Both the position numbers and the translations under genes were made by a program. The notes beneath the pieces were generated by a model. That model did not search any database. It was not told where the DNA came from and was given only the letters and a program-made list of their open reading frames with translations. A stretch of DNA of 64,000 nt, from assembly GCF_004010195.1 (NCBI RefSeq), contig NC_057719.1, forward strand, positions 24,639,604 through 24,703,603. Reading direction: 5' to 3'. Within the stretch, counting starts at the first letter, position 1. Every line of letters begins with the position of its first letter. Source of the DNA: Chiloscyllium plagiosum (taxonomy: Eukaryota). Below, piece after piece: positions 7,038 to 62,259 of this stretch.

Positions 7038-7266
7038 AATAAAAACCAAAAGAACTGTGGATGCTGTAAATCAGAAACAAAAAAGTTGCTGGAAAAACTC
7101 AGCAGGTCTGACAGTAATCTGTGAAGAGAAATCACAGTTAATGGTTTGGGTCTGGTAACTAGTCAGTTCAGAGGAAAGGTCACCGGATCCAAAACACTAA
7201 CTTTGATTGCTCTTCACAGATACTGCCAGGCCTGCTGAGCATTTCCAGCAACTTCAGTTTTTGTAT
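7038..7266. mobile_element. Decayed Penelope-type terminal-repeat element with inverted ends
   Basis: GCTGGAAAAACTCAGCAGGTCTG is inverted against CAGGCCTGCTGAGCATTTCCAGC. A degenerate hammerhead-like core lies near 7168-7200. Confidence 0.55.
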
Positions 7267-7767
7267 CGCATCTTGATTGCACCTGGCTAGGCTGGGAACT
7301 GACAAGTTGTACGGGAGATGGTTGAGCAGTCTTGAAGAAAAGAACATTTCAGGCTGTAATGAATGGCAAAATATAGACATTGCGGGATGTGACTTTAGAG
7401 ACAGTTAACTCCCTGCCCTGACTTACAAGAAAGCTTGCCGGATCCAGCACCAGCCCTCATGAGATTCTTGCCCATTCGGAAGCCTTGCCATTGAAGCCCT
7501 ACCCTAGCTGAGGTCAGTCAGTGAGCAGCAGCCTCAAGGGGTTGAAAAGCATCACTGGAAACCTAGAGTATACAGCTATAAGGACATATGATAAGACTTT
7601 ATGCAGCAGGCTTGTAGAATAGAGGGAAGAGGGAGATCAGAGGGAAGTATGGGCCAGTCTCTCCAACCCAACAGATAGGCCACCCCAGTTTCCCTTTTGG
7701 AAAAGTGGCCCCTCTTCCCCACCTGCTCTGAGGGAAAGTAATAAGACAGTGCCATTTATTGGTGATG

Positions 7768-8070
7768 ATTAGATTAGATTCCCTACAGTGTGGAAACAGG
7801 CCCTTTGGCCCAACACGTTCACACTGACCCTCTGAAGAGTAACTCACCCAGACCCATTTCCCTCTGACTAATGCACCTAATACTGTGAGCAATTTAGAAT
7901 GGCAAATTCACCTGACCTGCACATCTTTGGACTGTGGGAGGAAACTGGAGCAAATCCACGCAGACATGGGGAGAATGTGAAAACTCCACACAGTCACCCA
8001 AGGCTGGAATCGAACCTGGGCCCCTGGTGCTGTGAGGCAGCAGTGCTAACTACTGAGCCATCATGCCACC
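7768..8070 (-). mobile_element. HE1-type tRNA SINE
   Basis: Minus-strand A and B boxes, V-domain and (AATCT)n tail. Confidence 0.9.
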
Positions 8071-9346
8071 CGGTGGGTTGCAAAGATTGCCCACGGACCT
8101 TCTCACCTGAAACTTAATTTGCTTCAGCAGTAGGAAAGGGGCCAATATCTCTCCAGGTCCAAACTGCTTAATTATTTGTTCTTCCCACCCTCGCCACCTC
8201 TAGGGAGGGCAAAATCACACACATGATTATTAAATCCAATTGCCTGATCTGTTTTGAGGCTTGAAGTGTTGACTGTTGTTCCAACCCCTTTTAGTAAAGC
8301 TGAACTCCTGTGAAATATAAGTTGCTTTCTCCATTGCCAAGCCAATAATGATGCCAATGGAATGTATGACACAGGGAGTTGTCGTTACCACCCATTCAAA
8401 TGCAGCTGCTCATATTTGGCATTTGTTCCACCCTCAAACAGAAATTACTCTTAATGAGGCATCACAGGCATCCCCTATTAAAGATCAAGCAAGGTTTCAA
8501 AGATCAAATAAATTTTCCACCCGTTAATCAGACAAGAAGATTGCAAAACATCATGCTGTCTAAAGCCGTTAGCTGAATGGGCAGGATTTGTGTATGTTTG
8601 TCAGACTTGTATTATTATAATTTGACAAGCTTTCCATTGAATCATTAAGGGGATGTTTGAATCACAAACATAAATTTGGTTTGGCAGGAGCTATATTCCT
8701 GAATCTGAAGCAAACATTCAAATAAGCCTTTAACAGCTTGGAAAAGGGACCAGTGCACTGATCCGATCATCAAATGCAGCTCAGAATTTCCCACAGGGAA
8801 AATGTCATCCAATTTCAGTTTAATAATCAAGCATATCATAAAAATGAACACATATTCTGAGCATTGGTTTCACTGCAGAAGCTTGGTTTCTCAGACTACC
8901 TTCATGAAAGGATTTTCTCCTGGTGATGCTCTGACCTGTTGATGATATTGTGTTACAGTGGTGGTAAATATGGTCCATCAATTTTCTGTCTTCCACCATC
9001 TGATTGTTATACCTGAGATTCTTCATGGACTAAAATAGTTTTTAAAAAAGGAATAATTCTGACCTGAAATGAATGTGGTGATCACCTGACCAGCGATTGA
9101 GGTAAGTCCCACATGGAATAAGTGAAAACATATGCACTCAAGCTACCATTTGATTGAAAGATGTTTAAACCAGGCAACTGAGTGGGGCATTAAGATACTC
9201 AGGTCTGTATCTCCACTTTCATTAACCCATGTGATAATTTCACGTACTGGGAGATGAAAGGTTTCCCTGCTTGGTATCCAGTATTCAGAAAGACGATGGA
9301 GCCAGAGTCAGGACTGCACACTGAGATATATTTCAGCAGCTGCTTT

Positions 9347-10062
9347 TATTATGAAGATGTGGATGTGCTGTACCTTTCAGACAGCTAAAAGCAATAGAAC
9401 TACCTGACAGAACCAAGTGTTCTGAAAAGAAATATAACCTAGCATTTGGTCGAACAACTTGATTAGCTATTTGCCTGGAAATGACAAAACAGATTGGAAT
9501 TAGGCCAATCAGTTTAAATTATATCCTGAAAAATACCAAACTCCAATCCAGTTTGAATTTAGTATATTGATAATCTTAAAAGCCAATAACACAATCCAAT
9601 GCTTTGGGGGTATAAGACCGGGGTAAATTGAACATCTGAGAGAAGAACTGCCAAGCTACCAGCATGTAAAAATGACTGCCTGAAAAAATAGCTCTCTTAA
9701 AAGTACCTTTATCGATAAGTAACCTGTGAAGCGGAAATCCTGAAGAAGAAGAAAAGAAGACTGGAATTCAGAGAAAATAAAAGCTGCCTGGTTTGAAGGT
9801 AAGAAGTTTTGTTTTGTAAATCGTAATCAGGAGTTTTATCGGACTGGTATTATAAAAGGCAAGGTAACAGATAGGTTAGAGTAAGGAATTGCAAATAGTT
9901 GTTAGTTAATTATTCTCTGTTATACTTTAAGAAATAAAGTTGTTAATTTTTACTTTAACTCGTTCTTGGCCTATCGAATTTTCACAGATTACTGCATGGG
10001 ATAAATCTTTTCTGTGTTACTGGTTTTAAATTAAGCAGGCGAGTTTACCCTGTGTCAAAACA
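9347..10062 (+). mobile_element. LTR (~716 bp) of an LTR retroelement
   Basis: Degenerate inverted ends TATTATG...CAAAACA, CCAAT boxes, TATAAG at ~9611 and AATAAA at ~9933. A tRNA-Pro PBS follows immediately. Confidence 0.7.
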
Positions 10063-10065
10063 GTT

Positions 10066-10097
10066 TGGGAGCCCATCTGGGATTTGAACCAGGGACC
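10066..10097 (+). other. Primer-binding site, extended complement of the tRNA-Pro 3' end
   Basis: TGGGAGCCCATCTGGGATTTGAACCAGGGACC versus the tRNA-Pro complement TGGGGGCTCGTCCGGGATTTGAACCCGGGACC: 27/32 identical, starting 3 nt after the LTR CA. Confidence 0.8.
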
Positions 10098-10943: not shown

Positions 10944-12707
10944 CATGTTTCACAAACTTGGTTGAGTTTTTTTTTAGATTAGATTATTTACAGTGTGGAA
11001 ACGGGCCCTTCGGCCCAACAAGTCCACGCTGACCCTCCGAAGAGCAACCCACCCAGACCCATTCCCCTACATTTACCCCTTCACCTAATACTACAGGCAA
11101 TTTATCATGGCCCATTTACCTAACCTGCACATTTTTTTTTGGACTGTGGGAGGAAACCGGAGCACCCGGAGGAAATCCACGCAGACACGAAGAGAATGTG
11201 CAAACTCCACACAGTCTCCCTGTGTCTGCGTGGATTTCCTCCGGGTGCTCCAGTTTCCTCCCACAGTCCAAAAAAAAATGTGCAGGTTAGGTGAATTGGC
11301 CATGCTAAATTGACCGTAGTGTTAGGTGAAGGGGTAAATGTAGGGGAATGGGTCTGGGTGGGTTGCTTTTCGGAGGGTCAGTGTGGACTTGTTGGCCCAT
11401 AGGGCCTGTTTCCACACTGTAAATAATCTAATCTAATCTAAAAAAAACTCAAAAACTTTTTGAAGAAGTAACAAAGAGAATTGATGAGGGCAGAGTGGTA
11501 GATGTGATCTATATGGACTTTCGACATTCAACAAGGTTCAGTAAGGCATTCGACAAGGTTCCCCATGGGAGGCTGATGAGCAAGGTTAGATCTCATGGAA
11601 TACAGGAAGAACTAGCCATTTGGATACAGAACTGGCTCAAAGGTAGAAGACAGAGGGTGGTGGTGGTGCTGGAGGGTTGGTTGTCAGACTGGAGGCCTGT
11701 GAGCAGTGGAGTGCCACAAGGATCGGTACTTGGTTCCACTAATTTTTATCATTTATATAAATTATTTGCACGTGAGCATAAGAGGTATAGTTAGTAAGTT
11801 TGCTGATGACACCAAAATTGGAGGTGCAGTGGACAGCGAAGAAGATTACCTCAGATTTGCAATGGGATCTTGATCAGATGGGCCAATGGACTGGGAAGTG
11901 GCAGATGGAGTTTAATTCAGATAAATGCGAGGTGCTGCATTTTGGGAAAGCAAATCTTAGCAGGACTTTTACACGTAATGGTAAGGTCCTAGGGAGTGTT
12001 GCTGAACAAAGAGATCTTGGAGTGCAGGTTCATAGCTCCTTGAAAGTGGAGTTGCAGGTAGATAGGATAGTGAAGAAGGCGTTTGGTATGCTTTCCTTTA
12101 TTGGTCAGAGTATTGAGTACAGGAGTTGGGAGGTCATGTTGTGGCTGTACAGGACATTGGTTAGGTCACTGCGTGAAATTCTGGTCTCCTTCCTATCGGG
12201 AAGGTGTTGTGAAACTTGAAAGGGTTCATACAAGATTTACAAGGATGTTGCCAGGGTTGGAGGATTTGAGCTATAGAGTGAGTTTGAATAGGCTAGGGAT
12301 GTTTTCCCTGGAGCGTCGGAGGCTGAGGGGTAACTTTATAGAGGTTGATAAAGTCATGAGGGGCATGGATAGGATAAATAGGCAGAGTCTTTTCCCTGGA
12401 GTCGGGGAGTGCAGAACTAGAGGGCATAGGTTTAGATTAAGAGGGGAAAGATATAAAAGAGACCTAAGGGCAACATTTTCATTCAGAGGGTAGTACGTGT
12501 ATGGAATGAGCTGTCAGAGGAAGTGGTGGTGGCTGGTACAATTGCAACATTTAAGAGGCATTTGGATGATTATATGAATAGGAAGGGTTTGGAGGGATAT
12601 GGGCTGGGTGCTGGCAGGTGGGACTAGATTGGGTTGGGATATCTGGTCGGCATGGACGGGTTGGACTGAAGGGTCTGTTTTCATGCTGTACATCTCTATG
12701 ACTCTAT
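10944..12707 (+). mobile_element. Young CR1 LINE (RT half), interrupted near its 5' end by the SINE palindrome
   Basis: [29 protein letters not shown] and KFADDTK motifs, with frameshifts. CTCTATGACTCTAT tail at ~12700. Confidence 0.93.
10962..11452. repeat. Palindromic (head-to-head) HE1-type SINE pair, ~235-bp arms, 19-nt spacer
   Basis: 10962-11195 is the near reverse complement of 11215-11452. The mirror-image ORFs 11091-11303(-) and 11107-11313(+) reflect this. Confidence 0.95.
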
Positions 12708-14320: not shown

Positions 14321-15633
14321 GTAATTGTATTCATTTTGTTGCCAAATGCGCTTTTCAAGACTGACAGATCACCGCCTTTAGGGTTTCCATCTGTGTCCTT
14401 ATTTGGATAATTGGCTGATAATAGCTTTTTGAATAGATCATTATGAGCTGTTCAGAATACAGCTTTCCGATTGCAGCAGTTAAACTTCATGGAAAACCTG
14501 AAAAGATTCATATGGAATGTTCTTAGAATGACATCTTAATAGGAATCGAATTCTCGCCTTTCAAATAATGGGCTTTTTGCCAAAGGAGCATATGCAGGAC
14601 AGGAAATAGGATAAACAACCTATACCAGGACGAAGGAAATGTTGAGATCCAATATGCCAGATGGTTTAATGGAAGAGAAATACAGGGGGTGTATGCATAT
14701 TAAAGAGTATCTTTATACATAAAACAACGCTGAAAGCTTGAACTGACTTGTTCCAAAAACATTAGCCAGTTGTCTAAATATAGCTATAAATGTAATTTAA
14801 AGAAAATGATGTATGTTTGCAGACCACCAACGGTATTCAAGAAATTTAATGAAGTGATGGCTTTTAGGAGGCAGTTTATGGCTCACATATATTGTGTGTG
14901 AAAGGGTCATGTCAGATCCAGAAGGCAGTATATAACCTTGCTCCAGCTGTCTGTGAATGCACAGCCACATTTTATGGGGCGGGTCAGGTAACTTTTAAAG
15001 GATGAATGCCTGCTCCAAAAAGCTTTTGGTCAGTCGGAGTGCTGATGGTTTAGCAGTCTCAGCGGTGCCATAAGGAGCAGTGGCCAGTTCTGGGACTTGG
15101 AAGATATGGACGTAGGGAAGTGGGATCTGGCAGGAAATGAGGGGAATAGCATCAAAATGTGTCTTCGTCATGGAAACATCTCGAGAGATTCTGAAGGTTA
15201 TGCACCACCTTTGTCAACTTCCTTCACCAATCATGACTGATTTAGGTCGTAAAAGGACACCATATTCCCAACCAGCTAATTGGGAACTGGGAGACGGATG
15301 GCATCATTACCACATGGACAACCTCTTTCTCTATGGACCCAGTAGGTATTCTCACTTATAACATGTGAGTTGATCGGTAGAGATTGGCATCTCAAACACT
15401 CTGAGTTCACTTCTTGCTGCCTCAATTGCCAATGCCTTTTGTGTGTAAATCATCAGAGTGTAATGTTGAGGCTATGGTGGACTCTCGAAAAATTAAAAGA
15501 GGATTTTTTTGGTACCAAATTGTTGTGGTTGATCATTCTGACAAAAGGCAACAAGGCCAGCTAGGGATGGGCAATAAATGTTGCCAGCCAGTGAAGCCTA
15601 TGTCCCAAGAGTGACATCTCTGTTGCACCTAAA

Positions 15634-19129: not shown

Positions 19130-19655
19130 TAATAAGCAAAGGAAGATGGGCAGACAACTAATGATTTCTTATATTTAAAAAGGGAGATGGAACAAGTCCA
19201 GGGCACAATCGACTAATTAGTTTAACTTCATTTGTACTGAAGATAATGGAATCCTCGATCGGTAATGTAACAAAAAATATATAGAAACTGAAAATATCAT
19301 AATGAGTAGACAGCACCAATTCCAAATGAGCTAGTTTAAGTCTGACTTATCTTTCTGTGTTCTTTGAAGAAGTAGATAAGAGTAGTGGGAGAATAAATAT
19401 TTTTGTATGCCAAAAGAGCTTAGAGAAGGCGTTATTTAGACATATGATGAAAGTCAGAACAGGGGATAGGTAGCAGCTTGAGTACCAAAATAAAGTTGGC
19501 AAAAAGCGAGTAGTATGTTTCAGTGAAAAACTATTATTGTTTATCATTTACTAAAATTACTTGAAGTTGGGAATTGGAAGTAGAATCTCATAATTTGTGA
19601 ATGGCAGCAAATGGAGGGATATAGATGATTTAGAAGAGGACTATAGCAAACTACA
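19130..19655 (+). mobile_element. Highly decayed CR1 RT fragment
   Basis: Remnants of the PLFKKG-NYRPISL-SQH-FFEEV coding region. Confidence 0.55.
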
Positions 19656-20269
19656 GGAGAACATTGGTGAGGAAATTGAGCAGGAGGAGAGAAGCCATAA
19701 TTCTCCTGGAGCCAGGAGGTTCTCAAGGACCAGCCCCAGAAGGCAATGGAGGCAACCCAGTAAGTGAATACATTTTCCCATGATGCCTACTTATCACAGC
19801 ATACACCTCTCATTCATCTCAATAAACCACTTCCTGACACACACTGTGCTCATCCCTTAGTATGCACGCATAAATCTTTAAAATGATGGAGCAGGACTCG
19901 GATACAGTAATCTCATCAGTAGAGCCACATGAAATTGGTATAGAGTTCAAACATATCCTATTTTGGCTGTTGTTTGGACCTTTACCTGCAGTATGGGAGT
20001 CACAAAATCACAAAGTAGACTTAAACACTCTTCAGGAAAGATAAGGTCTGCTTAGTGTCACAATATCTGGATTTTTACATTTTCTGCTCTATAAACTTAA
20101 AGAAAAAACTACTGAGTTTGAAACACACACTGTTGGACTGTTTTGATTGACAAACCATCTGATGTTGGTCAGAAACAAAAACTTCCACAAGTTCTTCATT
20201 GACATTTACCAAGTGCTGTTATTATGACATTAGGAAAGTCTGGCTGAGTTTCAAAAACCAAAAAGCGTA

Positions 20270-20748
20270 GAGCTGGAAAAAGCACAGCAGGTCAGGCAGC
20301 ATCCGAGGAGCAGCAGAATTGATGTTTTGGGCATAAGCACTTCATCAGGAATGTGGAGGGGTCAGGGGGCTGAGAGATAAATAAGAGGGTAAGTGGTCAC
20401 CCCCCACCTCATCCCAGATCAAACCCTCCAGCATGGCACCACCCTCTTGACCTGACCTGCCTCTCCATCTTCCTTCCCACATATCCACTCCACCCTGCTG
20501 CCGACCTATCACCTTAACCCCTTACCTGCATCTACCTATCACCATTCCACCTAACTTTCCCCTCATACCCACCCCCATCCTCTTATTTATCTCTCAAGCC
20601 CCCTCCCCCTCCACATTCCTGATGAAAGGCTTATACCCGAAACATCAACTCTGCTGCTCCTCTGATGCTGCCTGACCTGCTGTGCATTTTTCAGTGCCAT
20701 ACCTTTTGACTCTGACTGTCCAGCATCTGCAGTCCTCACTTTCTCCTG
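20270..20748. mobile_element. Penelope-type element with inverted terminal repeats, each carrying a decayed hammerhead motif
   Basis: 20270-20390 is inverted against 20585-20700. CTGATGA...GAAA at 20619-20642 (+), with a mirror copy near 20320-20348 (-). Confidence 0.7.
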
Positions 20749-20914
20749 CGTTTCAAAAATGACAGGCATCTCAGTGTAGATTTCACTTTCAGAAAATTTG
20801 GTAAGCTATCCGCTTTGGCAGCAAAACTCAGGTCCCTAATATCAAATAGGTGATTGTACTATTTGCTACTCCTCACATACTAAAGCAAACAATGCCCAAA
20901 TGCAATAAGCCATA

Positions 20915-21505
20915 GACAAGTTCCTGATTTGGGCTGACGAGTGACAAGTGACAATCACATCACAAGTGCCAGGCAATGACCGTTTCCAACAAGAGAGAAT
21001 CTAAACATTGCACTTTGACATTTGATAGTATCACCATCACTGAATCCTCCATCAACATCATGGCATCAACTTTGACCAGGAACTGAACTGAAATGATCAT
21101 AAAAATAATGTGACTACAAGAGTCAGAGGTGAAGTGACTTCACCTGATGAAGTAGCAGTGCTCTGAAAGCTTATGATTTCAGTTAAATCTGTTGGACTAT
21201 AATCTAGTGTCATGTGACTTCTGAACTTGTCCACTCCAGTCCAACATCGGTACCTCCACATCATGACATCGATTTCTTCCACCACTGACACAGAGTATAA
21301 GATGAACTGCAGAAATTCACTAAGCCTCCTTTGATAGCATCTTCCAAACCAATGACCTCGCCAGCTAGAAGGACAAGGCCAACCTGAGAACACTACCAGC
21401 TGCAAGTTCTTCTCCCAGCTACACACATCCTGGTTTGGAAATATATCACCATTCTGTCGCTGTCCATGAGTCAAAATTCTGTAATACCCATCTTAATGGG
21501 GTTGT
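20915..21505 (+). mobile_element. CR1/L2-group LINE 3' fragment with a nested Penelope-type hammerhead element (21140-21265)
   Basis: WAD.WQVT...KCQAMT.SNKRES remnant. The insert reads CACCTGATGAAGTAGCAGTGCTCTGAAAGCTT...GGACTATAATCTAGTGT. Confidence 0.7.
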
Positions 21506-21634
21506 GAACTGCATTGATTCAACAGGGATCTAACATGACACCAGGGTTGCAAGTGGTCTGATTCAACCTCAGACTGTTACCAGGGAGAGGGATTGAGTTA
21601 GTTGTGAGTGGTTGGTGTTTTTTTTTTCAGGAAC

Positions 21635-21758
21635 CACAACTACCTGTTGAAGGAGTAGCGTTCTGAAAGCTAGTGCTTCCAAATATACCTGTTCGACTAT
21701 AACCTGGTGTTGTGTGATTTTTAACTTTGTACACCCCAGTCCACCTCCAAATCATGAC
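21635..21758 (+). mobile_element. Penelope-type terminal repeat with decayed hammerhead motif
   Basis: ACCTGTTGAAGGAGTAGCGTTCTGAAAGCTAGTGCTTCCAAAT...ACCTGGTGTTGTGTGATTTTTAACTT, the same family as 61856 and 50825. Confidence 0.7.
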
Positions 21759-24239: not shown

Positions 24240-24752
24240 TCAGGGAGAGGGGCTGGATAGGGAGTCAGGGGATGGGTAGGGACGTTATTTGAAATTGGAG
24301 TACTCAGTGTTGAGTTCTCCAGATTGTAAGCTAACTAGGCAGAAGATGAGAGGTGCTGTTCCTCCAATTTTCAGTCTGATTCACTGTGGCATTGGAGGAG
24401 GCTGAGGATGGTCATGACGGAGAGGGAATGGGCAGGGAAATTAAAATGGACAGTGACAGGGAGGCCAGTCCTTGTAGGCCTGGCTGAGATGTTTGGCGAA
24501 ATGTGCCCTGAGTTTACGTTTAGTCTCAGCAATGGAGAGAAGACCACTTTGGAAGAACTGGATACAGTAAACTAGGAGGAGAGGCAGGTGAACCTCTGAC
24601 TCACATGGAAGGACTGTTTGGAGAAATTAGGTGAAAGTGAGGACTGCAGATTCTGGAAATTAGAGTCAAGATTAGAGTGGTGCCGGAATAGCACAGCAGG
24701 TCAGGCAGCATCCGAGGAGCAGGAAAATCGATGATTCGGGCAGGAGCCTGAA
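24240..24752 (-). mobile_element. Penelope-like element fragment plus terminal repeat
   Basis: 24630-24750 matches the 20270 and 36440 repeat family. 24280-24600 resembles the 3' (GIY-YIG-side) coding end of Penelope-like elements. Confidence 0.55.
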
Positions 24753-24754
24753 AT

Positions 24755-25073
24755 TGGGTCATCCAGCCCACTGAGTCTGCTCTGCCATTCAATCATGGCT
24801 GATACGTTTCTCAGCCCCGTTTTCCTGCTTTGTCCCCGTAACCCTTGATTCCCTTGACAATCAAGAACCTATATATCTCAGTCTTAAATATACTCAATGA
24901 CCTGGCCTCCACAGCCTTCTGTGGCAGTATATGCCATCGATTCACCACGCTCTGGCTGAAGAAGTTTCTCCTGATCTCTATCCCCCTAAAAGGTCTTCCC
25001 TTTACTCTCAGGCTGTGCCCTCGAGTCCTAGTCTCTCCTAGCAATGGAAACATCTTCCCAACATCTACTCTGT
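24755..25073 (-). mobile_element. CR1 3' tail
   Basis: TRGHSLRVKGRPF...RRNFFSQSVVNRW peptide. Confidence 0.85.
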
Positions 25074-30540: not shown

Positions 30541-32312
30541 CAGGTAAAGGGATGGCTGAAAAATGGGAAGCCTTCAGAAATGAGATAACAAGAATCCAGA
30601 GAAAGTATATTCCTGTCAGGGTGAAAGGGAAGGCTGGTAGGTATAGGGAATGCTGGATGACTAAAGAAATTGAGGGTTTGGTTAAGAAAAAGAAGGAAGC
30701 ATATGTCAGATATAGACAGGATAGATTGAGTGAATCCTTAGAAGAGTATAAAGAAAGTAGGAGTATACTTAAGAGGGAAATCAGAAGGGCAAAACGGGGA
30801 CATGAGATAGCTTTGGCAAATAGAATTAAGGAGAATCCAAAGGATTTTTACAAACATATTAAGGCAAAAAGATAACTCAGGAGAGAATAAGGCCCCTCAA
30901 AGATCAGCAAAGCAGCCTTTGTGTGGGGCCACAGAAAATGGGGGAGATACTAAATGAATATTTTGCATCAGTATTTACTGTGGAAAANNNNNNNNNNNNN
31001 NNNNNNNNNNNNNNNNNNNNNNNNNNNNNNNNNNNNNNNNNNNNNNNNNNNNNNNNNNNNNNNNNNNNNNNNNNNNNNNNNNNNNNNNNNNNNNNNNNNN
31101 NNNNNNNNNNNNNNNNNNNNNNNNNNNNNNNNNNNNNNNNNNNNNNNNNNNNNNNNNNNNNNNNNNNNNNNNNNNNNNNNNNNNNNNNNNNNNNNNNNNN
31201 NNNNNNNNNNNNNNNNNNNNNNNNNNNNNNNNNNNNNNNNNNNNNNNNNNNNNNNNNNNNNNNNNNNNNNNNNNNNNNNNNNNNNNNNNNNNNNNNNNNN
31301 NNNNNNNNNNNNNNNNNNNNNNNNNNNNNNNNNNNNNNNNNNNNNNNNNNNNNNNNNNNNNNNNNNNNNNNNNNNNNNNNNNNNNNNNNNNNNNNNNNNN
31401 NNNNNNNNNNNNNNNNNNNNNNNNNNNNNNNNNNNNNNNNNNNNNNNNNNNNNNNNNNNNNNNNNNNNNNNNNNNNNNNNNNNNNNNNNNNNNNNNNNNN
31501 NNNNNNNNNNNNNNNNNNNNNNNNNNNNNNNNNNNNNNNNNNNNNNNNNNNNNNNNNNNNNNNNNNNNNNNNNNNNNNNNNNNNNNNNNNNNNNNAGTTA
31601 GTAAGTTTGCAGATGACACCAAAATTGGAGGTGCAGTGGACAGCGAAGAGAGTTACCTCAGATTACAACAGGATCTTGACCAGTTGGGCCAATGGCTGAG
31701 AAGTTGCAGATGGAGTTTAATTCAGGTAAATGCGAGGTGCTGCATTTTAGGAAAGCAAATCTTAGCAGGACTTATACACTTAATGGTAAGGTCCTAGGGA
31801 GTGTTGCTGAACAATGAGACCTTGGAGTGCAGGTTCATAGCTCCTTGAAAATGGAGTCGTAGGTAGATAGGATAATGAAGAAAGCGTTTGGTATGCTTTC
31901 CTTTATTGGTCAGAGTATTGAGTACAGGAGTTGGGAGGTCATGTTGCGGCTGTACAGGACATTGGTTAGGCCACTGTTGGAATATTGCGTGCAATTTTGG
32001 TCTCCTTCCTATCGGAAAGATGTTGTGAAACTTGAAAGGGTTCAGAAAAGATTTACAAGGATGTTGCCAGAGTTGGAGGATCAGAGCTACAAGGAGAGGC
32101 TGAACAGGCTGTGGCTGTTTTCCCTGGAGTATTGGAGGCTAAGGGGTGACCTTATAGGGGTTTACAAAATTATGAGGGGCATAGATAGGATAAATAGACA
32201 AAATATTTTCCCTGGGGTCGGGGAGTCCAGAACTAGAGGGCATAGGTTTAGGGTGAGAGGAGAAAGATATAAAAGAGACCTCAGGGGCAACGTTTTCATG
32301 CAGAGAGTGGTA
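30541..32312 (+). mobile_element. Young CR1 LINE with an N gap, 3' UTR missing
   Basis: Near-identical peptides to the 15634-18200 copy (RKYIPVRVKGKAGRYRECW). Ends abruptly at FMQRVV. Confidence 0.93.
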
Positions 32313-32630
32313 ACCACCTGATAAAGCTAGTGCTTCCAAAATCTCTTGGACTATAACCTGATGTTGTGTGATTTTTAACTGTCCACCCTAGTCCAGCACT
32401 AGCACCTCCAAGTCACTGTAACCCATTGTAAATGATTAAAGACTTAACAGCAGTCGAGGTTTGTTCAATACATCGCATCAGTTGTATGACACTTTGATCT
32501 TTTACCTATAAATTCTGTGTCCTATGATTCTGCCCCACTAGCTCCTGTCAAAGGAGTTGTGCTCCAAAAGCTAATACTTCCAAATAAACCTGTTGGACTA
32601 TAAACTGGTGTTATGTAATTTCTAATTTCT
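32313..32630 (+). mobile_element. Tandem Penelope-type terminal repeats with decayed hammerhead motifs
   Basis: Two copies of AAAGCTA..CTTCCAAA..TGGACTATAA.CTG.TGTT at 32323 and 32567. Confidence 0.7.
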
Positions 32631-36436: not shown

Positions 36437-36567
36437 AGTTCCTGATGAAGGGCTCTTGCCTGAAACGTTGATTCTCCTGCATCCTTGGATGCTGCCTGAC
36501 TTGCTGTGCTTTTCCAGCACCACACTCTCGACTCTGATCTCCAGCATCTACAGTCCCCACTTTCTCC
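36437..36567 (+). mobile_element. Penelope-type terminal repeat with hammerhead motif and 14-bp TSD
   Basis: Flanked by CTGGACAAGGAAAA at 36423-36436 and 36568-36581. Core TTC-CTGATGA-A-GGGC TCTT GCCT-GAAA-CG-TT-GA. Confidence 0.8.
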
Positions 36568-38833
36568 CTGGACAAGGAAAAGTCAAGGTCAAGAGCTCCC
36601 TGCAGGCTTGACCCTTTTTATAAGACTGGTTATTACATATTACTGTGAAATACTACGATGTATGTTATTCAGCAACATACTAGGCTCTAAATGTACTGGA
36701 CATTACTGAAAAGCTGTTCCATGAACTCTACCACCTAATGCTAATGTGACTAATGCACGTTTCTAATGTTCACAAGGCTAGACTTCAGGTTACTACCTAA
36801 CTCCCTATGCTTTTCTCTCTTCCCTGTTTAAATCCACCCACATTATGCCAGTTATGTCCAGTGAGGAATAGTTCCATGATGTCAACATATTTACTCCAGA
36901 GTCCTACAGCCCTTACACAGCACCTCACCTCAAGCTTTTCTGCAGTGATAAACATTAATCACCAATAACTTCTCAAATGAGTTATTGAGATTACTTCGAT
37001 GCAGAATTTTTACTATAGAATTTTATTTTACATGTCCCACCCCTTTGAAGTCTTTGACTTGATTCATTTGTACCAATGGGTGGAGTCAGGAAAGAGTATG
37101 AAAAGGTGTAGAAACACTTGAGTCTTTATCTCTATGGCTTCGGGTGGATCAGCAGTGCTCACTGGAAGGTCTTGTATTAATGTTACTACAGAAATGTCTG
37201 GGGATGTCAGGTTGTATCTTCTTTTCTATCATTAGAGTCTGGATTTAGTGATGGTGTTAATAAAAGTGATAGGTAGTTGTTCCCCACATAAACTTGATCC
37301 ATGACTGGGGTTTGTGAAGGTTCTGCTCCAAGGCAATGTACATGTCAGCTTGAAAATGATTTGGTTTATGCCTGGCATGTTCTTTAGACTATAGCTCATC
37401 TTTGAATAGTGTTTGCTTTTCCCACAACAGATACATTGTTGTTGTGGGGCAGGACAGTTTATCTTCACTGATACGGGGTTTTGAAACAAGATGCTTTAGC
37501 ATTAGATTGTTTAGGAGTTTGCACTGATGTTACTTCTGGTACATTTTTCAGAGGAGAGGTCTATTTCCTTCAGTCGAATGGCTTATGTGCTTTAAGTGGT
37601 CAACACTCTTTGCTTCAAATAGAACTTCTGCTGCACAGTGCTTCTTAAACAATTTTCTAGCCTATGTATTCTTATGCTATTTGATTGCTCATTCTAGAAT
37701 GACCCTTGTTTGATTGAACAAGTTCAGTTCCAATTTATCTGAGAGACCAATGATGATTTTGTTGCATATGTGTTCTTGTTGTAACTTTTCTGAGGTGTGA
37801 GGTTTAGGTAATACATACATATAGGTAATTACTGAAGCTAACAACAGACTCTCTGGTGGATAGTATCAGATCTTGAAACATGATCTTGCCATTGGCCTAT
37901 TTGTGAAATAAAATATTGATAAAAAGTTGTTATGAAGTTGTCAAACATAATTTGCTTCTCAAAATCTTTTGCTTATAACATGGGATCCTATGTTTTTCCT
38001 AAAGAGTGGAGAAGTGTGTTAACCTGTTCAGCATTTAACTTGGTATTCAGTCCTGAAGTGTTCGAGATTTTAGAAATTATGCTTTTCATACGTTCAAATT
38101 TCTGATTTATCAAATGGATGATAGTTTGAATTTTTCTGGTAGTATGTTTGTTAGAAGTGAATTTTGTTTCATTAGCTGATTGTTGATAGCACTTGAAGGT
38201 TTTGTTTTTTTTTATTTGGCCAAGGATTGTTAGGATTTTGATGTCTTTGTGCTACACTCAGTTTGTTGCCTTGTTGTATTGTTAAGTGATTAAAATTGCT
38301 ATTGAATCTTTGTTATTGCAAAGATGGTTGTTGTTGTCGGAAAGTAAATATTGTGAAAGTTTCTATTGTTCTAAATGCTGTTTTCAATGTAAAGTTCCTT
38401 GAAATAACTTTAATCAATAAGATTAAATAATGTTTGACTATATCAAAGATGGCAGCCATGATGTCGCTTGCGCCAATTATTTTTCTGCATCTGATGCATT
38501 TTTGAGTTGCATTTGACAACGTGATCAGATTTGACACCATGGGATCAGATGTGAGTTTATTTCTGATTTGTTGTTTTTAGCAATAAAAATGAATAAAATT
38601 TCTTTGCTCTGAATAAAACTTTCATTTTTCAGGCAGCTGTTAAATATTAAAGATGTTATTAACTTCACTGTTACAGCTCTGAAACTTTAAAATCCAATTA
38701 GCGATTTTCATTCCTGATTCTTTTTTCAATTAATTTACTTCATTACTACTTCTGAAGAATTTTGTTAACTTGCTTACCATTAACTTTGGCATCCTGTAAT
38801 TGTTGAGGAATTTTGAAATCATTGTCAGTACAT

Positions 38834-49000: not shown

Positions 49001-50517
49001 TAGCTAAATTTGGGTTACTAACAAACTATCAGTTAAATTTGTACTTTTGAGTTCAGTCATGAGGGAATACTGTATATTTAGAGAATTTATCTGGAATTAG
49101 CCATTAGTGACACAGTGCCATGCTTGATCCAGTTGCTGAAACAGATCGCATCTTACTGTAGGTAGAGTTGGAAGGTTTCTTAATCAACACTCCTCCCCTA
49201 CTGTGTACAAGTTGAATACCCTGCCTTGATTGGGTTCATTTTGTTAAATGCTTTGGAAAATTACTTGGATGTATAACTAAAGTTCATACTTTTACTTTTG
49301 TTCCCAGAAAGATAATTTTTCTGATGATTTGAAACAATTGCAGGCCAATCCTGCTTCTGCAGACTGTTGGACACAAGGCTGCTTCAGCATTGGCATCAGC
49401 TACATATTAGGATTGATTCTAGTAACCTCCACCTCAGCATAGCCTCAAAAAGGTTTCCCTAGCCCACTGTGAGGCCGCCAGATTCACCTGACAGTCTTCC
49501 CATCTGCAAAAGCAAACCACCTCCCCGATTCGCCCCCACCGCAACTCCCAATCATGCAGCTGCTGGTAAAATGCCAACAGTCCACAGGGAGAGGCCCTCA
49601 ATTGCTACCTATTGGACTCAATGGTCTTTGATCAGAGGGCCATCTTTCCCACTGCTGGCAAAGAGACAGGAAGATGATGGGAACACTATCCCATCACCTT
49701 CCCTCGACCTTTTGCAGCTATTCCCATTTCCCAGCTCTTCCCTAGAAGGCTGGTAAACTCCAACTCAATGAATCTATTTTTCTCTCAACAAACACATGCC
49801 AAATCTGCTGGACATTCTGACATTTTCTGTGTTTTTTTTTTAACTTCAGGATTGTAACATCTTTTGTAGTTTGCTTTTTGTCCTTTGCTGACTTCCTGTA
49901 AAAAAATGAAGGCTACAAAAGAAAAACCTTTAAAACCGTGATCAAGAACTTTTTGGTATGTTGTGTTTAAAAGGAAAGAATTTGCTCTTTGAACATATAA
50001 GGAAAGCTTCCACAAATGATTCTTGGCTTAGTTGTGAAAAGCTTTTAGTATTGAGGTTACTTTAGACAGTTGAGGTCTTTGAAAATGCAGTTGCCTCTCT
50101 CTCTTGGATCTCCTTGTCACAAAATTTACATTCAAAGTCATAGAAGGAAACAGAAGCAAAGATGATAAAGTCGAGGTCAATATAAATCAAAGTAATTTTA
50201 ATAGCTTTCTACATTAAAGTACATTCCTAGTCTAAGGCAAAAATGTAAATGAAACTGTCATGGTGCAGACTTTTTTCTGTTAGGATTGTGATAAAGACGA
50301 GAAGTAATAACAAACCACTGGATACCCTAATGGATGTTTTTCTTCTCAATTCATCCATGCTATACGGGATTTAAACAATTGCTAGCGAGTAGTACTTGAA
50401 CAGTTTGTGACACTTGTAAAGTAGTCAGTTAAGACTCTTATATATTAGAGTTTATCTGTACAACATACTTTTCTCATTACTCCATAATGTAACCATTTCA
50501 TGGCTTCAATATCAGTG

Positions 50518-50909
50518 ATGTGGAGTAGCCGGTGATGGACTGGGGTGGCCAAAGTCCAACAGGTTTACTTGGAAGTACAAGCTTTCAGAGAATCACTCCT
50601 TCTTCAGGTGGTTATGGATAAGGACCATAAGACACAGAATTTAAGATTACAGCAAAAGATTACAATGTCAAGCAAGTAAAATGATATATTTCACAAACAT
50701 CAATTGTTATTAAGTCTTTGAAGTTAACTTGCAACAACAATCGAGGTTTGTTAAATATATCATTTCCATTGCATGACACTAATCTTTTGCTATAAATTCT
50801 GTGTCTTATGGTCCTGCTCCACAACCACCTGAAGAAGGAGCGGCGCTGCAAAAGCTAGTGCTTCCAGATAAACCTGTTGGACTATCACCTGGTGTTGTGT
50901 CATTTTTAA
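50518..50909. mobile_element. Penelope-type element with inverted hammerhead-bearing ends and 14-bp TSD
   Basis: 50555-50643 is inverted against 50794-50885. Flanks CTTCAATATCAGTG (50504-50517) and CTTCGATATCAGTG (50910-50923). Confidence 0.8.
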
Positions 50910-51079
50910 CTTCGATATCAGTGGCCTAATGCAACAAAAATTTACACCTAGCTTTTATTACATTTCTGAAACAAGCCAACTGAATATTTAGGGCATACCA
51001 CAACATATTAACTATATACTGAAAAGGAAGAAAAATCAGTTGGATTTGGGGTGACTAAAATTGGAGAATGAAATTGTGA

Positions 51080-55541: not shown

Positions 55542-55742
55542 TTAAAGAGGATAAAATTGAGATGCAGCTTCTGATGACTGTATTTCCACCTGAGCCATTT
55601 TGAACTGAGTACATTGCAGCCATTTACGGAGTACTGATGAATTTGTGCTCATCTGCCCAGATCCCTGGAAAGACTGCAAGACATGATGGTTGACATTATT
55701 CTGGATTGATTGAAGGCGCAACTGCAGACCCGCTGAAAGATG
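55542..55742 (-). CDS. UNC79: UNC79 last coding exon, 66 aa plus stop: HLSAGLQLRLQSIQNNVNHH...LRKWLQCTQFKMAQVEIQSSEAASQFYPL*
   Basis: Acceptor ttaactcaacag|CATCTT and TAA stop at 55544-55542. The C-terminus matches the recalled UNC79 end (KWLQCTQFKMAQVEIQSSEAASQFYPL). Confidence 0.96.
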   Translation of the reverse strand, partial: HLSAGLQLRLQSIQNNVNHHVLQSFQGSGQMSTNSSVLRKWLQCTQFKMAQVEIQSSEAASQFYPL

Positions 55743-55857: not shown

Positions 55858-55899
55858 CTTTAAATTTGACTGAATCATTGGTAACCACATTGGTATCAG
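55858..55899 (-). CDS. UNC79: UNC79 penultimate exon, 14 codons: LIPMWLPMIQSNLK
   Basis: Acceptor tttttcttctttgaacag|CTGATA and donor TTAAAG|gtaagt. 42 nt, followed by a 115-nt intron. Confidence 0.95.
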
Positions 55900-56399
55900 C
55901 TGTTCAAAGAAGAAAAATGTTACAAATTATCATTGTTTTCAACAGTTAAACAAAACATTAGACATTAATTCCCTGCCAAATGACTGCAACCAAAAAGTAT
56001 AAATTATGTTGAAATTTTATCAACTGTAATCTGCTACTAGCACCTTAAGCATCTATAGATTCTAAAATGCAAATTATTTGGAACAATTTAACAGTGAAGA
56101 GCTGAATAGTGCGATGACACAGAGAATGCTGGAGAAATTCATCAGGACAGCAGAAGGGTTCTGAAGAGTCATCCCAGACTTGAAAAATTAACCCACTGCT
56201 GTCAGATCTGCCAAATTTCTCCAGTGGTCTCTGTGGTTGCTTCAGATTACCAGCATTTTGCTTTTATTACTATGATGACAGACCACATTAGAACTTCGAT
56301 CTTTTCTTTCTTATAGCTTTGTGACATAGATTCATCTAAGCAATTTGCACCTTAATTATCCTGTCATTAACAAGTGATAAGCAAACACATGGGACTGAA

Positions 56400-57834: not shown

Positions 57835-58047
57835 TATCGATAAATTGTGGAGCTGCAAAAAGCACTGTAGGTCAAGCAGCATCAGAAAAGCAGGCGAGTC
57901 AAAGTTTCGGGCAGGACCCTTCATCAGGACAAGTCCTGCCTGAAACTTCGACTCTCCTGATCTTCTGATGCTGCTTCACCTGCTGTGCTTTGTCCAGCTC
58001 AACATTTTATCGACTCTGACTTCCCAGCATCTGCAGTCCTCACTATT
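57835..58047. mobile_element. Fold-back Penelope-type repeat with a hammerhead motif, in a UNC79 intron
   Basis: 57836-57917 is inverted against 57933-58012. Flanks CCCATGACTGACAGT and CCCATATCTGACAGT are TSD-like. Confidence 0.75.
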
Positions 58048-61000
58048 CCCATATCTGACAGTGGCTCACCCAGTCAATAATGTAACATTAGCAGCCTGCA
58101 AAAAGCTCTAATATTCCTGTGCACTAAAAAGCAATGCAAGTCACAGAGTATGGCAGTTTCAAGTAAGCACAAAGTAGTCAGCAATATGAAATGAAGCTAA
58201 GAGCTTAGATTGGTGGTTTCCTGATAGTGGCTTGTGCAGACAAAGAGCGGAGGAAGATAGCATCTATGGAGTATGAGCAAGTTGTAGTGAACACCACGTT
58301 GGATGAAGGCCATGATGAGATTTCAGTCACCAGGCACCCATTATGACTTCCATGTCAAGAATTTGTGCCAACTAGGTTATTGAGGAAGGGGAGAATTGGA
58401 AGTATGTAAATGAGGTATGTAGAGCTAAAAATGAGGTGCACAGCTATGGGAATAAGGTAGCCGTTACTCAATAGGAAGATTCTGAAGTCGCCATTTAAAG
58501 CTTAAGGAGAAAATTGAGAATATTTTCTCAATGAAGAGATTCTGATTTTGTTTCATTCTCACCATTTTCCATGTTACTCCTGAAAAAAGAAAATCCTGCT
58601 CATGGTGCTTTATGCAAATTCATTGTGCCCTTGAAGACCTCTTGACATCCATTCTTTGTATAAGATGCAAGTTTGTGCAATTTATTTGTTCTTTGCTCTC
58701 CAAAACGACCATGAGTCTCAGTAAAAAGGCTGATTTGTGCATCAATAGCATATATCCCATTTGTATAAAGACACAGTAGTTGGAAGATTAGTTATTAGTG
58801 ATGTTCATCTCATTATGCAGATCAGTCAGGTCATATATTGCTTAAGCCACAGAAACTGCAACTCCAACACACACCAACAGGAACCTTTCAACTTCATTTT
58901 AAACAATGCTTAAAAATCCCGTAATTTTCCATATTGTTCTCAGTATTAGTTCAGCTGTCTCAGTGGCACTTTCATCATCAAGTAAGGGGTTTACGGACTC
59001 AAACCCCATTATCTCACCTCAATACAATGCTGATTAAGTGCTGCATTACTGGAGGTACTGTCTTCAGATGACTCAGATAAATGCACAAGATTTTAACTCA
59101 GTATATTTTTAAAAAAGCAAATGCAGTTTTCTTGCAGTTATATTCAACATTTTCTCTACAACTAGCACAAATAAATAGATTTCCTGGTTACTGACTCACT
59201 GTTTAATTGGCTCTTACTAAGCCCAATAGGTTACCAGAGTTACTGCACATTGACTGCTTTTGAAAAATAATCCAGTGGCTGTAAAAGATGTTGAATGTCA
59301 TGAAGAGGTAACAGAATGTAAACTAAGTGAAACATATTCCTTCCATATTGAGCTTTGAATTAACTGCACATTGGCTTGCTGAAAAATGATACAATAATTA
59401 TTTATATTATAATAATTAGCTATGCATATCTATCTCATATTATCCAGGATCTATATTAGGCTATAAGAGCAAAATTGTGATGGTTGTATTTTCTTTTCTA
59501 TCTACTAGGGTTGGACATCTTGACCAGAATGAACTCCACCTTCGATGATATGAAGCTTGACAGAATGTCTGATTTATGAAATACAATTATTCTGCATTGC
59601 CTATGTCATGGATTCAAGTTATTTGGATCTATGAATCTAACTGTGGCTTTACTAATTTCCGGGGTGATTGAATGTTATTTGATCATGAAAATGTCAAAAA
59701 TGAAACCAACCAAACTCCAAGGATAATAAAAATACCAAGATTTCATAAAAATACCATACCCTTCAATGTAGGCTCAAAATTATGGAAGTTCTTATAAGTC
59801 ATTTACTGGAATCATATCAAGCCATCTAGTATAGTTTCTAAATAAAATCCATCTAACCAGGAACTAAAAGTCAAAGGGAATTTATTTCATTACAATAATA
59901 AAATCAGCATTCACAATGCATTCTGTGGTGTAAAATGGGATTATTTCTCATGTAATATTTGAAATGCTCAAAACCTGAGTCATAGCAGTAAATCACAAAA
60001 ATAAGTACCTTTTTATAAAGAACTACTGTTCATTTTTAAAATACAATCATTATTGACAGTGATATTTCCATAGTTTGCATGTTGAGCATTATGAATTTTC
60101 CACCTTTATGTAACTGAACCAAACAAAACAGTGTTAGATTTTCATGGGGGAGCTTGGAAGTTTCAGTCATGAAATATTCTGATCTAGCAGGCACTCCTCC
60201 CTAAATGGCCCACTCCCAACTGTCCTTTAATTCCCAGGTGCAGGATGGAGTCAGGCCCTCTGCCTCTGAATGCAGTGGAAGGTGGTCAATTATGTTGCCG
60301 GCAAGAGCTGAGGTGGACTGATTAGTATGTTCATCTCAGTTCTCTGGTACTTTTGTCCAGTTGTATTAGGCTTCTCCCCCTCACCCCTCACCACCCCCAT
60401 GATCCTATATAAATAAAAAAAAGTATTAGTGCTCCCATTCAAAAATGCTTGATACTAAAAAAAAGGCAATGCATGAAACCCATTTAAACAAATCAAATGA
60501 CATTGAGTAATTGATATGTTGCAAAAACAAATAAGCATCGATTTCACTAACTACATTAAAGACAATTAATTGTTCAGTAACATCCAAAGATCTACATAGT
60601 CCCCTGCTGAGATAAGTAGTTTTAGATCTTTTGATTCTCATCATTATAATACACCTTGGAATATCTAAATAATGGACTGTACTGAAATTGCTAAAACAGG
60701 GGGCTGATTTTCTTTTTTGTAAGCTGACCATCATACTGTCGGCAAAAATGGGGTCAACCAGAACTGGAGGCTGGACCTTTACATCTAAGTTCCTCCAGAT
60801 ATTTTTAAAGATCCCCTAAGTCATACTGACTCAGTGAAGATATGTGCCATGTGTGTTTTAATTCCAATGATTTAGAGGTAGCTTCACACAGTAATGGATT
60901 TTGTTTTTTGTTTTCAAAATTAGAATAACTTGAGTGTAAATTTCTCATAACAGATTGCTAAAATAAATTCATATCTTAAAATTATGTGGTGGAGCAAATC

Positions 61001-61100
61001 CCTGTTAAAAGGAGAATGAGTGCCATCCAGTTAGCATAGGCATGTAAGTATTCTGTAAAAACATGATCTCTCACATCAGATATAATAAAAATGTAATTAC

Positions 61101-61178
61101 CTTCACAAAGATGGTTGAGTTGCATTCCTGTAGAGCTTCCATCAGGTTGATAACATGCAAGCAAACCATTTCTACCAT
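61101..61178 (-). CDS. UNC79: UNC79 coding exon, 26 codons: MVEMVCLHVINLMEALQECNSTIFVK
   Basis: Acceptor cctgtgttgtag|ATGGTA and donor GTGAAG|gtaatt. 78 nt, in frame with the neighbouring exons. The ORF track does not show this frame. Confidence 0.95.
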
Positions 61179-61855
61179 CTACAACACAGGGAATAAATTT
61201 TCACTTGAGAAAAGGTTAAAATAAAAGTTAATAGGTTTGTAAAGTTGGTTTTTCGAGCATTATTCAACATATTTGCACAAATGTGAAAAGTTGGAAATCT
61301 GAAATAAAACTGAGAAAAATGTTAATACTCTAGCAGCATTCTTGGAGACAAAAGGAGAGTGAACATTTTGAGTCACTGGCCTTTCAGGAAAGGTCTTAAG
61401 CATGAATACTGCTCCTTTCTTTGGACACACTGCCTGACCTGATCAATACACTAGATTGGATTTAGGTTATTGACTTTAAGGATACTTCTATAATTAATCA
61501 GAGAATTGGTGACACAATGGTTGTGTCCATGTCAGCTTTGTGCAGTAGGAACTCAATTTAGTTTCACTTCCCTCCTTTACCCTGTAGCCCTGAAAATATT
61601 TTCTCTTTGGTTAATTATTCAACTCACTTTTGAAAGAATCAATTGCATCTACCACATTCTTAGAATTGTAGCAGTACAAGAAGTTGGCTTGCCAACAATT
61701 TCTCAAGTAGAATTAGGGCAAAAGTTTTTTTAAAAAACAGATCAAACCACTTTACTGATTTTTTTTTTAATAAAGGGCTTTTTTCTTGTCACCTTTGGTT
61801 CATTTGCTTTAAATGTGGTTTTCAAATGGTGACCAAAAGGGAGATTCTCTCTCAC

Positions 61856-61890
61856 CACCTGATGAAGGAGCAGCACTCCGAAAGCTAGTG
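61856..61890 (+). ncRNA. Putative minimal type I hammerhead ribozyme in a Penelope-type repeat (61853-61940)
   Basis: CAC-CUGAUGA-A-GGAG CAGCA CUCC-GAAA-GC-UA-GUG: stem I CAC/GUG, stem II GGAG/CUCC, palindromic AGCU in place of stem III, CUA cleavage triplet. Confidence 0.7.
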
Positions 61891-62259
61891 TGCTTCCAAT
61901 TAAACCTGTTGGACTATAATCTGGTGTTGTGTGATTTTTAGATTTCTCATGATTTTGGTATCTCCACAATACTTCATCAAATCTCATCTTAACATTCTCT
62001 TCTCTAAGGACATCAGTCCAAGCTTCCTTAATGTGCCTAAATAACTGAGTCCCTCATCTCTTGTACCATTTTCTTAAGCCTTTTCTGCACATCCCTAATG
62101 TTTCCCACCCTTTCTAAACTGTGGTGCATAGAATTCGACACAATACTCCAAATTAGGCTGAGCCAGTGTCTTAAAAAGGCTAACTATAACTCTCATGTCT
62201 TTGCATTCTTTTAGCCAGGGTAAAGAACAATAGGTTCAAATATTCTGTTTGTTACTCAC

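Follow-up and report, generated by a model that had tools for sequence, protein, structure and literature searches.

The stretch of the Chiloscyllium plagiosum genome considered here (64,000 nucleotides (nt) of contig NC_057719.1, positions 24,639,604 to 24,703,603 of the forward strand, hereafter the window) contains short dispersed repeats that carry a hammerhead ribozyme motif. It is very probable that these repeats are dead, very short, 5′-truncated insertions from Penelope-like elements (PLEs) of at least three endonuclease-bearing families, cut down to the hammerhead and tail module of the pseudo-long terminal repeat (pseudo-LTR). All 12 motifs of two families that had been listed in a preliminary description are present, namely those of family A at 21141, 21641, 32315, 32543, 50610(-), 50826, and 61856, and those of family B at 20351(-), 20617, 24749(-, beginning in stem II), 36440, and 57929(-); a sixth family B arm, missing from that list, was found at 57934(+). 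Grouping by junctions and target duplications gives 18 arms of three families (A, B, and C) in 11 insertion events. About ten insertions had been estimated before; several of the listed motifs are two arms of one insertion, and the count is therefore one of events. The events and their arms are given below in window coordinates.

7038..7263, both strands: family C head-to-head unit, tail on the minus arm, ribozyme cores decayed, 15-nt imperfect target duplication (P 0.033).
20262..20748, both strands: family B head-to-head unit, 14-nt target duplication (P 0.002), left boundary bridged in organism C, a related species.
20262-20392, minus strand: family B minus arm of the 20262..20748 unit, 40 nt upstream of the core, no tail.
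20395-20748, plus strand: family B plus arm of the same unit, ~224 nt pyrimidine-rich upstream region, core 20619, tail.
21139..21266, plus strand: single stub of family A with tail, beginning 3 nt ahead of the core, boxes of the core intact, stems broken, bridged in organism C.
21632..21757, plus strand: family A single stub beginning 10 nt before the core, tail, core mutated, bridged in organisms B and C.
24630..24749, minus strand: family B stub beginning inside stem II, tail, 10-nt flanking repeat (9/10 alike, P 0.08).
32311..32628, plus strand: family A direct partial tandem of two arms, 32311-32415 then 32420-32628.
32311-32415, plus strand: family A arm of the tandem, stem II deleted, tail.
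32420-32628, plus strand: family A arm of the tandem, upstream region of at least 107 nt, core decayed, no tail.
36439..36569, plus strand: single stub of family B with tail, beginning 3 nt ahead of the core, target duplication of 14 nt, perfect (P 0.0008); intact minimal hammerhead, core 36442, predicted cut after 36469.
50515..50913, both strands: family A head-to-head unit, 14-nt target duplication (P 0.002); minus arm with 112 nt upstream, an intact core at 50607, a tail, and an internal deletion removing the poly(A) site region; plus arm with 96 nt upstream, G12 mutated, no tail.
56116..56262, both strands: head-to-head unit, decayed and family C-like, inside an intron of UNC79; minus arm short and lacking the core; 7-nt end repeat (P 0.2).
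57846..58050, both strands: family B head-to-head unit in a UNC79 intron, 14-nt target duplication (P 0.012); minus arm beginning 2 nt before the core, palindrome lost; plus arm beginning in stem II, with tail.
61852..61940, plus strand: single stub of family A, intronic in UNC79 and antisense to it, no tail; best-kept hammerhead, core 61859, predicted cut after 61887.

Both of the decayed relatives that had been suspected exist, with different degrees of certainty. The element near 7170 is a head-to-head unit of the third family, C, related to B (the family B profile gives E values of 5.8e-8 and 7.5e-6 on its arms), while that near 56160 shows no more than a weak relationship (E 0.014-0.039 with profiles from which it was left out) and has no BLAST match. 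Profile searches of the window returned no further copies of family A at E < 1 and one doubtful 27-nt B-like piece (E 0.46); 14945-15002 on the minus strand may be an additional decayed piece of family C (E 0.045-0.11). Rfam, at gathering thresholds, has 0 matches in the window.

Each motif runs in the order stem I 5′ strand, CUGANGA, one extra A, stem II, GAAA, two bases, UH, the cut, and the stem I 3′ strand. Helix III is absent, a four-base palindrome taking its place. As previously described, families A and B differ in stem II and in this palindrome, which is AGCU in A and ACGU in B. By sequence, all of the motifs are minimal type I hammerheads such as have been published for PLEs. A strict descriptor that asks for both boxes, three pairs in stem II, two G/C, U, and H finds three matches in the window, compared to 0 in each of 300 shuffles. 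The consensus given earlier makes the copies look more intact than they are: only 3 of the 13 A/B arms (61859+, 50607-, and 36442+, which also keep palindrome and stems) pass the descriptor, and the copy at 32315 has no stem II. In the latter, stem II is cleanly gone (32311-32335), as if skipped in reverse transcription or lost by hairpin deletion. Among the ten A/B arms with a full-length core, the boxes CUGANGA and GAAA, U16.1, and H17 are all intact in six, the extra A between positions 9 and 10.1 is found in all ten, and G at 10.1, a feature of the G10.1-C11.1 pair, in nine; the ACGU palindrome is kept in one of the four full-core family B arms, and in the 50829 arm G12 is changed to A, as read by eye. 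Single-strand folding of the three intact copies and one decayed copy gave z-scores of -0.8 to 0.9 and no hammerhead fold, which is the expected outcome because the motifs are of the dimer type.

In the window alignments, the 3′ ends of each family fall at two sites ~35-40 nt apart, which bound a tail of 30-40 bp, as in PLEs. The loose ends of family A contigs from three organisms agree with this, the sequence becoming heterogeneous at 21728-21730 or ~24 nt behind 21743 (24 of 8,072 rows). Five of the 11 events are head-to-head with the 3′ ends outward, and in the four readable units only one arm has the tail; a further event (32311-32628) consists of two arms in direct partial tandem. The target duplications, a feature that is optional in PLEs, have 14-15 bases aligned and beat a random-position null in five events (P 0.0008-0.033), with short candidates in three others and none in the remaining three. 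The 5′ ends, relative to the first core base, lie at -3, -10, -6, ≤-107, -112, -96, and -5 to -14 in family A and at -40, -224, about +8, -3, -2, and about +12 in family B. None of the 13 A/B arms begins at the cut site (+28/29), and cleaved linear RNA was therefore not the template. The two 3′ ends, the head-to-head geometry, and the truncation are the marks of truncated PLE insertions given in the available text of PMC8557442 and PMC3846280, and they indicate ordinary PLE stubs. The same features recur in a 24-member family among the outside loci, which shows the same pair of 3′ ends, has inverted partners, and varies at its 5′ ends from +93 to -340; its longest copy enters a GIY-YIG-like open reading frame (ORF; recognized by motif only).

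We have also considered that the repeats are non-LTR retrozymes, i.e., monomers bounded by hammerhead ribozymes (HHRs) that self-cleave, circularize, and re-insert by rolling-circle reverse transcription. Such elements contain type I hammerheads in dispersed repeats, and the accessible part of 10.64898/2026.07.22.740005 reports them in the one cartilaginous fish sampled; the partial tandem at 32311-32628 would be of the appropriate kind. However, no tandem HHR-bounded monomers or full-unit head-to-tail arrays were found in the window, the first core of the sole tandem has no stem II and its ends are unequal, the units end at the tail sites instead of the cut site, and five events are head-to-head, which together make a retrozyme origin very improbable.

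A second possibility is a true non-autonomous family resembling a short interspersed nuclear element (SINE), in which a short RNA with ribozyme and tail, transcribed from short masters, is mobilized in trans by a PLE protein. This is close to what the preliminary description had proposed, and the PLE origin and the hammerhead fold in that proposal stand. Short forms do dominate, the ratio of terminus to upstream depth being above 15 (see below). According to the text available to us, non-autonomous PLE derivatives exist, such as Chlamys/MRC1 (PMC8557442) and retrozymes (10.64898/2026.07.22.740005), and pseudo-LTR sequence suffices in cis for mobilization in trans (PMC3846280). On the other hand, shared upstream sequence is present for a further 40-224 nt in 5 of the 13 arms, short arms are found together with long ones in the same insertion, and no two events have both ends in common. 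The short arms share no sequence upstream and no tRNA-like or other common head in the alignments, no tRNA scan having been made. The lack of a fixed length, with 5′ ends from about +12 to -224, argues against a SINE, and the separate SINE-like system is accordingly considered improbable. With 8 of 13 arms starting within ~14 nt of the core, there may nevertheless be a short self-propagating subfamily. The long arms of family A (32420-32545, 50607-50720, and 50733-50829, two of them in one event) all reach 96-112 nt upstream, a position that is possibly a second preferred stop or RNA start.

The connection to PLE coding sequence comes mainly from other animals, where the same core is found either 159-505 nt after or at the beginning of ORFs recognized by Pfam as GIY-YIG or as reverse transcriptase (RT) plus GIY-YIG (loci L006, L009, L026, and L032). 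In L032, at least four PLE ORFs that contain GIY-YIG follow one another in tandem, and two of the units are separated by a hammerhead core. The terminus of a marine-metagenome contig (L107:300-420) is the best family A match among 113 tails, and an ORF ends ~205 nt upstream of it. This 30-residue ORF end may be that of a PLE endonuclease, a reading for which neither a GIY-YIG hidden Markov model (HMM) nor the Atlas gave a score. In the window itself, the following PLE piece was found.

24300-24626, minus strand (24240..24626 with the start of a pyrimidine-rich 3′ region): decayed, frameshifted PLE-type GIY-YIG remnant, detected by frameshift-aware scoring.

With the L009 domain, which was picked after the likeness had been noticed, 24300-24626 scores 77, as compared to 47 elsewhere and 35-44 in eight controls. 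Of 18 seeds, several of which are related, 10 have it as the best site in 128 kb, 2 give a tie, and 6 rank it lower. The remnant is not significant with plain tblastn, with phmmer, or with a GIY-YIG HMM of 15 sequences, so that only frameshift-aware scoring detected it; Pfam assigns 0 families to the two stop-free pieces of the 24.5 kb remnant, and word-indexed searches with the pieces returned no true relative. P0001, a repetitive insect hypothetical protein and the sole representative-library match to the pieces, was dismissed as spurious. A coral-type PLE query has 53 relatives, none of them named as fish. The remnant was considered as the body of the adjacent 24749 stub, and this was rejected: the 10-nt repeat flanks the stub alone, which indicates separate insertions. 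The remnant, an older piece of a PLE, is separate from the stub and lacks a ribozyme.

Several observations weigh against the assignment of the repeats to truncated PLE insertions. No A, B, or C arm is joined to a recognizable ORF in the window, where the search for an autonomous RT and GIY-YIG partner with the same termini, as had been suggested, yielded only the separate remnant. The 3′ region of this remnant does not match the upstream region of family B (P 0.64), and four RT seeds detected no PLE RT remnant in the window. Exact-pattern tail scans found 0 loci for A and B in viral contigs and 0 for B in genome contigs. The element boundaries used in the target-duplication test were set by eye. 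Finally, the 5′ ends of 8 of the 13 arms (-14 to +12) are more clustered than plain random truncation would give, and no A/B arm begins between +13 and the 3′ end. The tie of A, B, or C to an autonomous element is thus one that we infer.

For the favored assignment to truncated PLE insertions, the following sequence of steps can be suggested. An autonomous PLE protein (RT + GIY-YIG) would cut the target and prime cDNA synthesis internally on the element RNA, at either of two sites ~35-40 nt apart; the enzymology of this step is taken from the available part of PMC11167929, and the two 3′ ends themselves are observed in the window. Synthesis would mostly halt after 90-350 nt, often just beyond the ribozyme, which the arms in the window show. 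Priming at both target ends, or folding back of the cDNA, would then produce the head-to-head unit with a tail on one arm and a duplication of 10-15 nt, a structure that is observed and a mechanism that is presumed. The template was either uncut by the ribozyme or re-ligated, because the arms keep the core upstream of the cut site. In PMC11167929, as far as its available text goes, the PLE of Anolis carolinensis termed PAc (Poseidon) cuts and extends both target strands, with uncleaved RNA as the main template. The ribozyme, for which cleavage is predicted, would need a partner to form helix III; the contrast of covariation and decay described next indicates that it is conserved in master elements and decays neutrally in the stubs.

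The preliminary description had proposed that the ribozyme structure was under selection as long as the families were mobile. Scanning metagenome contigs with a pattern gave at least 121 loci, from which 117 matches with flanks were assembled into 33 families of other animals, and covariation among the matches listed was assessed by a permutation test. Although these families are mutually non-independent and the search pattern itself fixed the core, the palindrome is kept in 32 of 33 with four dinucleotides permitted by the pattern, and the stems are paired well above the level in shuffles: stem I pair 2 is Watson-Crick in 79% (28% in shuffles), stem I pair 3 in 64% (31%), and stem II pairs 3 and 4 in 82% and 73% (36% and 33%), with stem II pair 5 at the chance level. 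In addition, the stem differences between A and B are compensatory. In the window, where three partial arms were left out, the stems and loops deviate from the family majority at 29/144 sites in family A and 20/90 in family B, compared to 23/239 and 18/187 downstream, i.e., 20-22% overall vs 9.6%, the changes being often at CpG. The covariation of stems and palindrome, together with the faster decay of the stems in the window, indicates that the fold is conserved among masters and decays after insertion, and the proposed selection during the mobile phase is supported. Among the matches listed, one outside locus, L107, resembles family A beyond the core, and none resembles family B.

The repeats had also been called abundant, which is in line with the sequencing data. 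Four of 24 listed runs, three of DNA and one of RNA, were mapped over 19600-25200; the list named no RNA run that contains the stretch itself. The summed contig depth in X1, which is not a copy number, is 6-11 on most unique bins and 0.8-1.3 million on three terminus bins, and it falls to 47,515 on the family B upstream region and 11,882 on the GIY-YIG remnant. Its order of magnitude and the steep upstream fall are in keeping with very many copies, most of them short. Three of four short insertions are bridged by at least 31 bases in single-copy contigs of organism C, and one is bridged by a contig of organism B, with flanks ~3% different; three insertions are thus shared with one related species, and the bridged insertions are old and fixed.

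The RNA data, from one oligo-dT poly(A) single-cell run of which about 2% was read, point to a further feature of family A. While the unique flanks are nearly free of RNA reads, 5,279 reads were placed on the mapped region, 99% of which continue into unlike sequence and therefore come from other copies. Of these family A look-alike copies, 250 reads have poly(A) behind 21702, 30 nt past the predicted cut, which by projection defines the following element.

21682..21720, plus strand: family A poly(A) cassette, hexamer position 21682-21687, poly(A) addition near 21702, GU/U-rich element after.

The poly(A) point is 15 nt behind the hexamer position, which reads AATAAA in the 32543 copy and ATTAAA in 61856 and is altered in the other five arms. 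No A-run is found at this position in the window copies or in the rows listed for the three DNA runs; the reads may have been primed on A-runs of other genomic copies. Family A reads favor the sense strand of the element (first mate minus 119 vs 14, 53 vs 13, and 282 vs 154). These results suggest, as a new lead, that the family A terminus carries a poly(A) site used in RNA. Six of the seven family A arms are on the plus strand, the lone minus arm (50515-50612) having an altered hexamer and a deletion of the poly(A) site and GU-rich stretch; the four non-inverted family A events are all plus, which is a weak bias (P about 0.125).

The poly(A) site is upstream of both RT start sites, so that an RNA ending there cannot be primed at its 3′ repeat. 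This suggests a run-off variant, with strong-stop-like copies: the master RNA would begin a few bases before the ribozyme and, in family A, end at the downstream pseudo-LTR poly(A) site before the tail, and RT would prime only in the upstream pseudo-LTR and run off the RNA 5′ end, giving stubs of near-fixed length, with long copies requiring read-through. The clustering of 5′ ends at -14 to +12 would be explained, and the loose-end consensus behind 24742 tracks the core, agreement being lost ~6 nt upstream (X1, X9). RT also starts internally in vitro in the part of PMC11167929 available, and a PLE start site lies in the upstream pseudo-LTR (PMC6765202). However, no pile of RNA starts or ends was seen in the single-cell library, which is not a cleavage test, and the partner arms of the 24-member outside family, unselected for the core, start at +93 to -110 with no pile at the ribozyme. 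In the available text of PMC2377424 and PMC4209133, D. virilis Penelope starts 46 bp before a 75-bp intron ending at helix I, ~120 nt upstream, and stalling of RT at the ribozyme fold would yield the same cluster. We regard run-off as a tentative possibility; it refines the assignment to truncated PLE insertions and does not displace it.

A stronger version, which we consider rather doubtful, is that the family A pseudo-LTR acts like the R-U5 of a true LTR, with RNA starting immediately ahead of the hammerhead, a Pol II poly(A) site located 30 nt beyond the cut, and the RT starts further on; normal transcripts would be primed only at the 5′ repeat, and the stubs would be directly integrated strong-stop-like cDNAs. 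If true, a very large number of portable poly(A) sites would arise as a by-product, each of them preceded by a latent ribozyme and ending host or cryptic transcripts. Confirmation of the poly(A) site alone would allow the RNA end, the ribozyme, and the RT start sites to be mapped together, would bear on the formation of full-length vs stub copies in PLEs and on the role of the hammerhead, and would make the stubs a source of alternative polyadenylation in the lineage. No pseudo-LTR poly(A) site is described in the largely non-subscription literature searched; the string "polyadenylat" has no occurrence in PMC2377424, and the lone match for PLE polyadenylation with hammerhead, a Clec2 paper, was discarded as concerning another subject.

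Three stub events (56116..56262, 57846..58050, and 61852..61940) lie inside introns of UNC79, whose coding parts in the window are as follows.

62260-62457, minus strand: UNC79 exon, match to the solved UNC79 chain, E 5e-29.
61101-61178, minus strand: UNC79 exon, match to the solved UNC79 chain, E 5e-10.
55858-55899, minus strand: candidate 42-nt UNC79 exon, from a splice scan only.
55545-55664, minus strand: UNC79 terminal coding stretch, match to the solved UNC79 chain, E 2e-15; coding ends at 55545.

An orientation bias of family A relative to the host gene was dropped as an idea, since UNC79 ends near 55545 and only one family A copy is intronic. The location of the three events, including the best-kept core at 61859, might suggest that some copies have been co-opted as host regulatory ribozymes. 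However, the 61859 copy runs antisense to UNC79, the palindrome is lost from the core at 57927, which is on the sense strand, three lone copies are predicted not to adopt the active fold, and the stems and loops are less well kept than the downstream sequence, which makes co-option extremely unlikely.

The window is vertebrate DNA with ~40% GC. Pieces of long interspersed nuclear elements (LINEs), which we take to be of the CR1 type, are plentiful, their RT being recognized by Pfam, and each of the four assembly gaps (1,446 N; 16020-16112, 17367-17835, 26574-26849, and 30988-31595) is in or beside a LINE copy. A SINE-like repeat of ~320 nt, presumably HE1-like, occurs at 7766-8070, 10977-11438, 32750-33062, and 51564-51887 (copies 78-85% alike). 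An inverted pair of it with 9 nt between the members is found at 10967-11443, and there are fragments at 552-647, 903-990, and 35983-36076. A further repeat, 21296-21485, is 72% alike over 198 nt to 29220-29416(-); it sits between the two family A stubs and is also repeated in the mapped sequencing runs.

The 11 events, at a density of 11 in 62.5 kb, occupy together with the GIY-YIG remnant 2,766 bases, or 4.4% of the 62,554 called bases. PLE stubs thus account for ~4% of the window, and the appropriate annotation for them is that of PLE ends and not that of a new SINE. The window is a local sample of a known repeat class, the families themselves being new members; no paper on them was found in the largely non-subscription literature on Penelope and PLEs in sharks and cartilaginous fish.

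Comparison with known systems is based on the available portions of the papers cited. The non-LTR retrozymes (PMC7761336, 10.64898/2026.07.22.740005) are likewise non-coding, with a type I hammerhead, and related to PLE pseudo-LTRs, yet they are defined by tandem HHR monomers and circular RNA, whereas the window has dispersed stubs, single or head-to-head, whose ends are at the tail sites of PLEs. PAc (PMC11167929) likewise has two internal RT start sites bounding the tail, demonstrated in vitro, with which the two 3′ ends in the window agree. Its ORF starts in the ribozyme, while no long ORF was found after the core in the window copies, and the portion available describes no poly(A) site, in contrast to the family A terminus with its poly(A) reads. 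The Penelope/Poseidon, Neptune, and Nematis insertions (PMC8557442, PMC3846280) share with the window units strong 5′ truncation, an adjacent inverted truncated copy, a 30-40 bp tail at one end, head-to-head junctions, and partial tandems; they differ in that the window arms are too short for any remaining ORF and in the target duplications, of 10-15 nt in the window and about 8-10 bp in those units. The closest match for the ribozyme is the minimal HHR of metazoan PLEs (PMC4209133). Stem II of 4-5 bp and stem I of 2-3 bp in the window compare to 7-8 and 4-5 bp in the Schistosoma motifs, and the density of events is far higher than that corresponding to the ~4,000-9,000 motifs per genome found with a strict descriptor in coelacanth and Xenopus; the portions available do not mention cartilaginous fish. 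The type I core, the extra base between 9 and 10.1, the G10.1-C11.1 pair, the palindromic 15.2-16.2, and the missing helix III are the same, as is the occurrence mostly as single dispersed motifs with some opposite-strand pairs 100-700 bp apart, which are ascribed there to truncated PLEs.

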